Notes: generated by a model from the letters alone, not told the origin. 64,000 bases of DNA from Marsupella aquatica (GCA_973895155.1 OZ316891.1:29499611-29563610), one strand, 5' to 3'; shown: positions 13,832 through 16,632, counted from the first letter of the stretch. Numbers and translations: made by a program.

Positions 13832-13839
13832 TAGGGTTT
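13832..13839 (-). promoter_or_regulatory. Telobox (AAACCCTA) upstream of the fibrillarin ATG
   Basis: TAGGGTTT at 13832-13839. Teloboxes are typical of plant ribosome-biogenesis genes. Confidence 0.65.
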
Positions 13840-13995: not shown

Positions 13996-16632
13996 ATGGG
14001 TGATTATGGAGGAGGTGGCATGAAGCGCAAGTTCGACGGAGGAGGAGGAGGTGTGGTCCTGTTCTTTTCCTGCTTTCATTCTCGCATTCTGCCTCTCCCT
14101 CTGGTACGATTTTTGTGTTGCATTCCTTCAATGTCTGCTGGCCAAGGTGCAAAGCTGGTGGGTAGGTTGTATCCTTGGGTTTGGCTCGCATTTGTAGCTG
14201 GTGCAGCGAATTGAGGGATGTGTGCTCTTTTGTTTGCCTTCTTTCAGTCTCTCACTCTGTCTATTTTTCTGGTTCGTTTTCTTTAATTGCATTCCTGCAA
14301 TGTCTGCTGGCCAAGGTGAAAAGGTTGGTGCGTAGTTTGTATCTCGTTTGGGTTGGCTCGTATTTGCAGCTGATGCTGCTAATGGATTGTCGGAACGAAG
14401 AGATATCGCGTTATACAATATCCAGTGGCATTGGTCTCGATGGGCTTCGATGTGTAGTCAAGGACACTGCATCTTGGATGAAGAGAGTTCACCTCGGAGT
14501 CTAACCCCTAAACCCTAAACCCTTAAATGCAATTCGCGTTCTTGACTTTCTGGGATCGCATTTCGTTGCAGGCGGAGGCCGAGGTGGTGGAGGAGGGTTC
14601 CGGGGTGGAAGAGGAGGCGGAGGTGGCAGAGGAGGCTTCGGAGGAGGAGGAGGCTTCGGAGGAGGTGGCAGGGGAGGCCGTGATGGTGGACGAGGAGGAG
14701 GCAGGGGTGGACGAGGCGGTGGAAGAGGCCGAGATGGTGGTCGAGGAGGAGGCCGAGGGGGAGGCAGAGGAGGGCGAGGAGGTGGAATGAAGGGAGGAGC
14801 CAAGGTCATCATTGAGCCTCATCGACATGAAGGGGTGTTCGTTGCTAAGGCCAAAGAGGATGCTCTGGTCACGAAGAACATGGCTCCAGGAGAGAGTGTC
14901 TACGGAGAGAAGAGGATCAGCGTGGAGGTATGAAACGCTATTGCGTTTCCCGTCGCTGCGCTGGTTCACTGGATTAATTTTCACTGTGCTTCAGTTGACA
15001 TGGATGATCCTAACTGGTGACGTTTATGTTGTGCTCGTAGGGTGAAGAAGGAGCTAAGACTGAGTACAGGGTTTGGAATCCTTTTCGTTCCAAGCTCGCA
15101 GCCGCCATTCTGGGTGGCGTTGACAACATCTGGATTGTATGTCTTAGTGACCTTCTATTCCTCGGGGATTTGCTGACGTTTCTTCAATTCTTGACCTTTT
15201 TTTGGCGTTGCTATCAGTTCCGTGAAGCTGTCATCTGACTTTGACTGCTTGCTTGATTATTGCCTCCAGTCAATGTCGTTGAATCCGTGATCACCTCGCC
15301 CTTGTGCAGAAACCTGGCTCACATGTCCTTTATCTCGGAGCTGCGTCTGGTACCACTGTTTCCCATGTCTCCGACATTGTTGGACCGGTAATCACCGTGT
15401 CCCTATCGAACGGGTATTTCAGTTGTGGATATTACATAGATGCCTCATGGGCGTTTCTATGGTTCTTTACAAGTTTGACCTCCTGTAAACTATGGGATAG
15501 TTCTAAATATCATCTTTCCGGTCTCATTTGATGCATCTCTGGCAGACTGGAATTGTTTACGCCGTCGAGTTCTCTCATCGGAGTGGGAGAGATTTGGTGA
15601 ATATGGCTAAGAGACGTACCAACGTAATCCCAATTATTGAGGATGCTCGACATCCCAATCGCTACCGCATGCTCATGGGCATGGTAGACGTCATTTTTGC
15701 GGATGTTGCCCAACCTGATCAGGTAATCCTTAGTCCTCGCTGTCGTTTTATTACGTTTGTCAGTGAATTCAGTCTACATCATAGAAACCCTCCATACATA
15801 TGGACGAATGATTTTAAGCGAGTGAAGATTTCGTGGATTCCCCTTCACTCTTCAGTGAGTGACCAATCCTTTTCTGACGCTATCTATTTTCAATTTTTTC
15901 GGGTCCTCATATGGAGTTAGGCGCCGTAGTGCATGCATCGTTTACTTCAGCCAACAGAGCGAATGATTATATCACTTGGATTCCCCTTCTCGATATTCCT
16001 GAGAGAGCAATCCGATTCTGACGCTACTGTTGGCTATTTCTTCTAGATTTCTTCGCCTCCTCTTGTGACTGTAGATGGAGATGGATGTTAATAGGAAGAG
16101 AGATCTTGTATATCCATGGATCCGTCATTGGTGCAGGCACGTATCGTGGCGCTGAATGCTCACAACTTTTTGAAGAATGGGGGACATTTTGTCATCTCTA
16201 TCAAGGTAGACTTTCCGGGGTTATCTCACCAGTATCGCCCTGTTTGCCTTGTACTGATGAATGTGATGACTGTGTTGATGAATTTTGTGCATATTCTCAA
16301 TTCGGGTCGTGCTTTAACATCTTTGAAATCGAAGTGTCCTGGAGTGATGTTGACCAGTCTTAGCTTCTGAGTACCTGTTCCTCCTGAGTCCCTCTCCTGT
16401 GGTTGACACTCTAGTGCCATTATCGTCTGTGAGGCTGAACCTGTTTCGGGTGCAGGCCAATTGTATTGATTCCACTGTCCCAGCAGAGGCAGTATTTGCT
16501 GCAGAGGTGAAGAAACTTCAGAAGGAGCAATTCAAGCCTACTGAGCAGGTTACATTGGAGCCCTTTGAGAGAGACCATGCTTGTGTGGTGGGCGGATATC
16601 GAATGCCAAAGAAGCAAAAAGCCGGCGCATAG
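13996..16632 (+). CDS. FIB: Fibrillarin (rRNA 2'-O-methyltransferase), 7 exons: 13996-14050, 14572-14927, 15041-15136, 15310-15387, 15546-15722, 16137-16205, 16456-16632; 335 aa
   Basis: GAR/RGG domain, [65 protein letters not shown]. All introns GT-AG and the exon lengths sum in frame (1008 nt). Confidence 0.97.
14506..14523 (+). promoter_or_regulatory. Telobox / short interstitial telomere repeat in fibrillarin intron 1
   Basis: CCCTAAACCCTAAACCCT. Confidence 0.6.
15817..15881 (+). ncRNA. Box C/D snoRNA, U60f/snoR60-like copy 1, in fibrillarin intron 5
   Basis: Terminal stem AGCG/CGCT, box C GTGAAGA (15822), C'-like TGAGTGA, box D CTGA (15874). Guide GGATTCCCCTT is antisense to 25S AAGGGGAAUCC and guide CCAATCCTTTT is antisense to 25S AAAAGGAUUGG (rRNA recalled from memory). 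Confidence 0.85.
15958..16025 (+). ncRNA. Box C/D snoRNA, U60f/snoR60-like copy 2, in fibrillarin intron 5
   Basis: Terminal stem AGCG/CGCT, box C ATGATTA (15963), same GGATTCCCCTT guide (15978-15988), C'-like TGAGAGA, D guide GAGCAATCCGATT, box D CTGA (16018). Confidence 0.85.
16251..16374 (+). ncRNA. Putative orphan box C/D snoRNA in fibrillarin intron 6
   Basis: GTAC...GTAC termini, perfect box C GTGATGA (16263-16269), C' GTGATGT (16344-16350), box D CTGA (16367-16370). D guide CAGTCTTAGCTT has no rRNA target I can recall. Confidence 0.65.

Follow-up and report, generated by a model that had tools for sequence, protein, structure and literature searches.

Balance among the proteins of the C/D snoRNP is known mainly from mammalian SNORD86 and its host NOP56. 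SNORD86 is an orphan C/D RNA in an intron of human NOP56 (Lykke-Andersen 2018, via excerpts of PMC11028025 and PMC7038934), is restricted to Eutheria, and alternates between two folds of its own that select flanking splice donors; those excerpts describe no duplex between its guide and an exon. In the type represented by SNORD2 and EIF4A2, an intronic C/D RNA pairs with its host transcript through adjacent conserved intron sequence, with masking of the branch point, and 30% of detected human snoRNAs pair with the host transcript (PMC10324135, in excerpt). SNORD32A and SNORD51 direct a 2'-O-methyl group (Nm) into the coding region of PXDN mRNA and lower its translation; in the part of that report available, the target belongs to another gene, is conserved from fly to human and was shown experimentally (PMC7038934). 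In plants, introns of fibrillarin (FIB) are already known to carry U60, or snoR60 (RF00339; PMC8053127, in excerpt).

The locus described here lies in a 64-kb window (the whole stretch of DNA that was analysed, 64,000 nucleotides). As with SNORD86, a putative orphan C/D RNA has a gene for a core C/D protein as its intronic host, may be clade-restricted and could report core-protein abundance; its alternative predicted pairings, too, exclude the snoRNP form. Unlike SNORD86, the fibrillarin element has a guide complementary to coding sequence that lies 1.3 kb upstream, and neither an alternative donor nor an NMD isoform was observed. A duplex with the host transcript is predicted, as in SNORD2-EIF4A2, but in fibrillarin it would involve a distant exon, paired in D+5 register. 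The uninterrupted D+5-paired duplex in coding sequence that characterizes the PXDN case is present, at 12 bp over U15055, whereas the target predicted here is a wobble base in the mRNA for the methyltransferase itself. If functional, the pairing would combine a SNORD86-like purpose, a SNORD32A-PXDN-like mechanism and a host duplex of the kind in PMC10324135, without fully matching what defines any of the three in the excerpts. A fibrillarin-intron guide matching its own mRNA was unreported in the literature searched, which covered few subscription papers.

We put the probability that the guide pairs functionally with its own message at roughly 0.4, and regard a chance self-match as about as likely. 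If the pairing is functional, a plant fibrillarin enzyme would mark the mRNA that encodes it, by means of a D+5 guide of the ordinary kind directed at a coding exon, and the locus would allow 2'-O-methylation of plant mRNA to be tested at one natural site. What is predicted is narrowly defined, comprising a single RNA, a single nucleotide and a single hairpin in competition. If it is false, the liverwort gene still offers a C/D-like orphan RNA that has not been described before and an unusual hairpin between an exon and a donor. Feature coordinates are collected in the table below.

Table. Coordinates of the fibrillarin gene, its intronic C/D elements and the predicted pairings, counted from the first letter of the window
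Feature	Coordinates	Strand	Basis or detail
Fibrillarin gene, 7 coding exons	13996..16632	+	frame intact; every intron GT-AG
Coding exons 1-4	13996-14050, 14572-14927, 15041-15136, 15310-15387	+	gene model
Coding exons 5-7	15546-15722, 16137-16205, 16456-16632	+	gene model
Exon 3, 96 nt	15041..15136	+	phase 0 at 5' and 3' ends
Predicted hairpin over guide target and intron-3 5' splice site	15046..15156	+	folding
Target of intron-6 D guide	15051..15062	+	11 Watson-Crick pairs and 1 G:U; predicted Um at 15055
snoR60/SNORD101-type copy a, intron 5, D' guide to 25S	15816..15882	+	Rfam E 2.7e-4, below gathering
snoR60 copy b, intron 5	15957..16025	+	Rfam RF00339, 41.9 bits, above gathering
5' flank of intron-6 element	16247..16255	+	complement of 15063-15071; GTAC 16251-16254 can pair GTAC 16371-16374 instead
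Three tandem C-like boxes	16254..16281	+	16254-16260 (1 mismatch), 16263-16269 (perfect), 16275-16281 (1 mismatch)
C' box GTGATGT	16344..16350	+	1 mismatch; 16 nt upstream of D
D guide (antisense element)	16355..16366	+	adjoins box D
Box D CTGA	16367..16370	+	ends 85 nt 5' of 3' splice site

The fibrillarin gene and its intronic C/D elements

The exon-5 peptide of the gene has 100% identity to Calypogeia fissa and 98% to Marchantia and Riccia, so the gene is read, by inference, as a leafy-liverwort-type plant fibrillarin. Contig joints in run X6, from a relative (organism C) and presumed to be RNA, agree with introns 2-6. Among the 15 listed of 19 joints in these contigs, there was no exon-3 skipping and no alternative joint; skipping of exon 3 would stay in frame, deleting a conserved 11-residue stretch. 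In intron 5, two snoR60 copies served as positive controls for the target scan, in which their guides give 11-13 bp, with rRNA duplexes of 12 bp for copy a and 13 bp for copy b. The D guide of copy a (15863-15877) has, in addition, a perfect 11-bp match in 25S rRNA at position ~1931 of contig L136, and the Arabidopsis Nm table lists no 25S site between U1892 and U2114 in the excerpt available (PMC8053127); this match could be either a lineage-specific second guide or one more chance 11-mer. Intron 6 of some angiosperm-like FIB genes (L004, L027 and L032) holds an extra snoR60 copy.

Intron 6 of the liverwort gene probably gives rise to a third C/D RNA, one restricted to its lineage. Boxes C, C' and D are present where the original prediction placed them, the perfect box C reading GTGATGA and the first C-like box CTGATGA, and the spacing from C (RUGAUGA) to D (CUGA) falls within the 50-130 nt of a box C/D snoRNA. 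The configuration of perfect C, C' and D was reached in 37 of 10,000 intron-6 shuffles and occurs only once in the window across both strands, while at least three TGATGA hexamers arose in 26 of 10,000 intron shuffles. As the perfect-C filter misses both snoR60 copies in the window, it is a strict one. The distance from box D to the 3' splice site matches the usual intronic placement of C/D RNAs. These observations weigh against the alternative that intron 6 holds no RNA gene at all, only a UG-rich sequence with box-like motifs, such that the one real structure, if any, would be the exon-3/intron-3 hairpin described below. That alternative draws on the architecture of the element, which also counts against a functional pairing. 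D' box candidates were degenerate, none with a guide of 10 clean bp, and a canonical terminal stem was not found for the perfect C box. The terminal stem (K-turn) of C/D RNAs has a 3-nt bulge; here GUAC can pair with GUAC in a stem of 4 bp, which gives a bulge of 1 nt next to the first C-like box and is placed outside the perfect C box. Folded by itself, the element does not stand out (z -1.06), an Rfam search gave no match at E<=10, let alone at gathering, and when one C mismatch is allowed the window contains 8 relaxed sets of C, C' and D, 5 of them on the minus strand. On balance we consider the absence of an RNA gene unlikely, and the boxes predict that the intron-6 element is probably a real orphan C/D RNA.

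Two further ideas about the element were rejected. Compared with snoR60, it lacks the snoR60 D' guide and is ~40 nt longer, and neither Rfam nor nhmmer with a 37-sequence profile gave a match; a box-preserving shuffle placed its similarity to snoR60 at p ~0.10, with 3 of 37 single comparisons below 0.05, and a degenerate snoR60 paralog was set aside. A split K-turn formed by an intron C box and the CTGA in exon 3 would have a 1-nt bulge and was ruled out on geometry.

The frame of exon 6 stays open into intron 6 over 54 codons (16116-16370) and ends exactly at the TGA of box D, and the C-like boxes at 16254, 16263, 16275 and 16344 lie in one common frame; the chance of such an open frame is ~9%. 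Read-through-peptide searches found no relative of this tail peptide among 120 listed of 170 matches, nor among 146 in another search. Run X6 has depth 0 in the bin 16253-16363, with intron 5 covered, and two of its contigs jump from 16204 to 16444 and from 16207 to 16449, possibly representing a paralog like record 7 of run X1; these observations were given no weight as evidence. That record, aligned over 15546-16535, is a second, diverged fibrillarin copy of which only the exons align, with no alignment over the snoR60 copies or the intron-6 element.

Pairing of the intron-6 guide with exon 3 and other RNAs

The 11 nt at 16355-16365 are the exact reverse complement of 15052-15062. This match holds as originally described, but the guide was said to stand directly before box D, and U16366 intervenes. 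As U16366 can pair G:U with G15051, 12 pairs are usable. The D+5 rule, which sets the site of C/D-guided 2'-O-methylation, points as predicted to U15055, the 15th base of exon 3 and the third, wobble base of an Ala codon, GCU. Synonymous positions within the target are 15052, 15055, 15058 and 15061. Two longer pairings had also been proposed. An extension to 14 nt does exist, but it needs C16367 and U16368 of box D. Likewise, 16247-16255 does complement 15063-15071 with one G:U, but this 9-mer overlaps the first C-like box, contains the GTAC that can alternatively pair with a GTAC just past box D, and cannot form part of the guide duplex. Since both extensions use box nucleotides, they are incompatible with an assembled C/D motif and would instead belong to a non-snoRNP fold; in a co-fold all arms pair, at a net -22.5 kcal/mol.

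A match as good for this particular guide was found in 6 of 5,000 pre-mRNA shuffles (~1 in 830), 2 of 5,000 CDS shuffles and 6 of 5,000 synonymous recodings, which, together with the rarity of the box set, favours a functional pairing. Against it stands a high background. Any intron-exon 11-mer appears in 28.5% of intron shuffles, a second one exists in the same gene (intron 5 with exon 2), and window-wide 11 nt are reached by 2 of 151 relaxed and 1 of 17 strict C/D pairs. The gene contains 18 inverted repeats of at least 14 nt, four of which, at 93%, are as good as the guide match. Given several guides per gene and the post hoc noticing of this one, the guide-exon 3 match taken alone is suggestive only. 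By our estimate, some ten 11-mers would match by chance in a transcriptome of 40 Mb. Elsewhere in the gene, 16337-16351 complements 14877-14891 in exon 2 (15 nt, 87%) and 16373-16390 complements 14035-14052 in exon 1 (18 nt, 78%), both probably background.

The search for other targets used a D+5-anchored rule on angiosperm-type rDNA contigs (18S, 5.8S and 25S) and a U2 5' fragment, together with Arabidopsis reference RNAs (Table S3 of PMC8053127), in which the snRNAs U1, U2, U4, U5 and U6 are whole and the long rRNAs comprise ~400 letters only. Anchored in this way, the guide pairs with exon 3 over 12 bp, compared with 8 bp for LSU (25S) rRNA and 9 bp each for SSU (18S) rRNA and U2, which include 4 and 2 G:U pairs, respectively. 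Exon 3 is its best partner among all RNAs tested, a point in favour of a functional pairing. No duplex of at least 10 bp was found for it in angiosperm rRNA or Arabidopsis snRNAs, which are proxies for the liverwort RNAs. Its description as an orphan is upheld within these proxies, where no canonical rRNA or snRNA target appeared and none was better than its own exon 3. An interrupted duplex at 25S ~1210-1227 (-16.0 kcal/mol, equal to a control) was rejected, as it has no continuous D-proximal helix; the Arabidopsis 25S has no Nm between A1143 and A1263 in the excerpt of PMC8053127. In the same scan the downstream CTGA at 16384 had no target, and a U6 motif scan found nothing.

U2 was the top-scoring non-host partner, and among the five Arabidopsis snRNAs the complement of the guide core occurs once, in U2, and is absent from U1, U4, U5 and U6. 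The element could then be a scaRNA-like guide pairing with the U2 5' stem region, and Arabidopsis U2 Gm26 is without an assigned guide in the available part of PMC8053127. However, the U2 duplex reaches only -11.8 kcal/mol vs -20.5 for exon 3 and stays below 10 bp. Its D+5 position falls on U23, which is not among the Nm sites in Table 3 of PMC8053127 (Arabidopsis, in excerpt), and G26 would be D+8. A role in U2 modification is thus very improbable.

Another alternative is that the element is an ordinary orphan or decaying C/D snoRNA, hosted in the same way as the neighbouring snoR60 copies, which targets some other liverwort RNA or no longer has a target, the exon-3 match being due to chance or a small local duplication. 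Orphan C/D RNAs are numerous in plants (PMC8053127, in excerpt), 11-nt self-matches arise at appreciable rates, the targets scanned were proxies rather than liverwort rRNA, snRNA, tRNA and transcriptome, and fibrillarin introns repeatedly host snoRNAs, intron 6 included, with another set of C, C' and D there in 5 of 49 sequences from other lineages. The per-guide chance of ~1e-3 and a second rare pairing on the same target stand against it, as do the candidate origins: descent from snoR60 is unsupported, and derivation of the guide by duplication from the intron-3 donor was rejected (intron-3/intron-6 similarity p 0.27, not significant). We regard this ordinary-orphan reading as a real possibility.

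A plant rDNA primer matched 56 prokaryote genome contigs (L121-L176), many of which are eukaryotic rDNA. Rfam identified eukaryotic rRNA genes in six of the seven contigs examined, a sign that the assemblies are contaminated.

A predicted hairpin between exon 3 and the intron-3 donor

The exon stretch that matches the guide also enters a second predicted pairing, with the intron-3 donor, which is a feature new in this analysis. The predicted arms are 15046-15051 with 15151-15156, 15053-15060 with 15141-15148, and 15064-15068 with 15136-15140. The local fold has z scores of -3.6 and -3.95, the lowest among 42 windows of the gene, and its strength was reached by 0 of 500 intron-arm shuffles and 0 of 300 in a second shuffle set. 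The same test gave p 0.56-1.0 for the remaining five donors of the gene, and, when 365 of 470 donor-like sites were tested, this donor gave the strongest result (z -4.2, followed by -3.8 and -3.4). Synonymous recoding equalled the donor-arm pairing in 350 of 5,000 cases, and both this and the guide pairing were reached in 3 of 5,000. The two pairings share a 7-mer and are therefore correlated, not independent. With that limit, a second strong pairing of the same exon stretch would make pure chance a less comfortable explanation, and the unusual strength of the hairpin argues for a functional pairing.

Folding also supplies evidence against it. In a fold of 15000-16480 the pairing probability of the exon-3 stretch with the intron-3 donor is ~1.0 and that of the guide pair ~0, so that naked RNA favours the hairpin. 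When the guide site was made unavailable, with or without the flank, the intron-3 donor was still mostly paired in the fold model. As guide-site occupancy leaves the donor paired, a simple switch in which the guide frees the donor is unsupported, and with it the earlier suggestion that fibrillarin could re-splice its own transcript; a splicing switch through competition with the hairpin appears quite unlikely. In the model, 8.6-10.3 kcal/mol are needed to open the target while intron 3 is present and 5.4 once it has been removed, vs -18.9 for the guide duplex, and this lower cost after intron-3 removal favours the spliced mRNA as the substrate. Of the two routes, binding or methylating the spliced mRNA is the more probable, though still less likely than not.

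The explanation that we propose is that the C/D guide binds exon 3 of its own gene, such that particles containing fibrillarin would damp expression of the fibrillarin mRNA. Before splicing, the predicted hairpin with the intron-3 donor would keep the target locked. Assembly of the RNP would depend mainly on an ample supply of core proteins; the RNP would engage the message mostly after intron-3 splicing, and would bind or 2'-O-methylate U15055, such that translation is modestly lowered or the mRNA held. In the excerpt of PMC6409545, one Nm is enough to inhibit translation at any of the three positions of a codon, with the strongest effect at the second, and this counts against a functional effect of a predicted Um at a wobble base. 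A host that encodes a core C/D protein, as for SNORD86 in the excerpts cited, speaks for it. Taken as a whole, a self-limiting loop in liverworts is rather unlikely; in such a loop, a guide released from the last fibrillarin intron would direct the enzyme to methylate or clamp the fibrillarin mRNA, with a donor hairpin gating the site until splicing.

Relatives and additional observations

A metagenome scan yielded 119 fibrillarin loci, none liverwort-like, and viral contigs yielded 0. These loci provided 49 distinct complete intron-6 sequences, labelled by exon-6 peptide as 27 angiosperm-like, 3 bryophyte-like and 19 other. The guide 8-mer was found in 0 of the 49, all of them non-liverwort, which weighs against a functional pairing. 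Among 19 non-liverwort loci with exon 3 and its donor, the exon-3 hairpin reached p<0.05 in 0 in the full-fold test and appeared in 2 in a shorter duplex test, and CTGA-anchored matches to exon 3 extended over 4-7 nt. Neither the intron-6 element nor the hairpin was found in the moss-like or angiosperm fibrillarin loci scanned, and this lack of conservation in mosses or angiosperms is in keeping with intron 6 holding no RNA gene.

Closer to the gene under study, relative B (two studies, ~96% identity) carries the intron-6 element without indels, in a comparison of indels only, which is consistent with a functional pairing. Record 22 of run X5 has 0 gaps, and record 13 of run X3 has 9 gap letters, all outside the element. 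The peptide encoded at the target varies even within liverworts (GAKTE, GAKVE and GEKVE), a further point against functional pairing. For intron 3, a peptide compatible with the hairpin register occurs in one Marchantia-like read-through (P0366), and likewise in 3 of 39 distinct starts, which is too degenerate to count.

Several smaller observations accompany these results. Intron 1 contains a tandem duplication of ~100 nt (14118-14214 and 14287-14386, 79-95% in blocks) for which Rfam returned no match. Telo-box-like motifs, typical of plant ribosome-biogenesis genes, lie at 13832 in the 5' region and at 14510 in intron 1. Finally, in three fibrillarin loci of a non-plant lineage (L011, L054 and L070), an element with C, C' and D is conserved in the intron after the ISIK codons; in L011 and L070 it has no Rfam match at gathering and is a candidate undescribed snoRNA.
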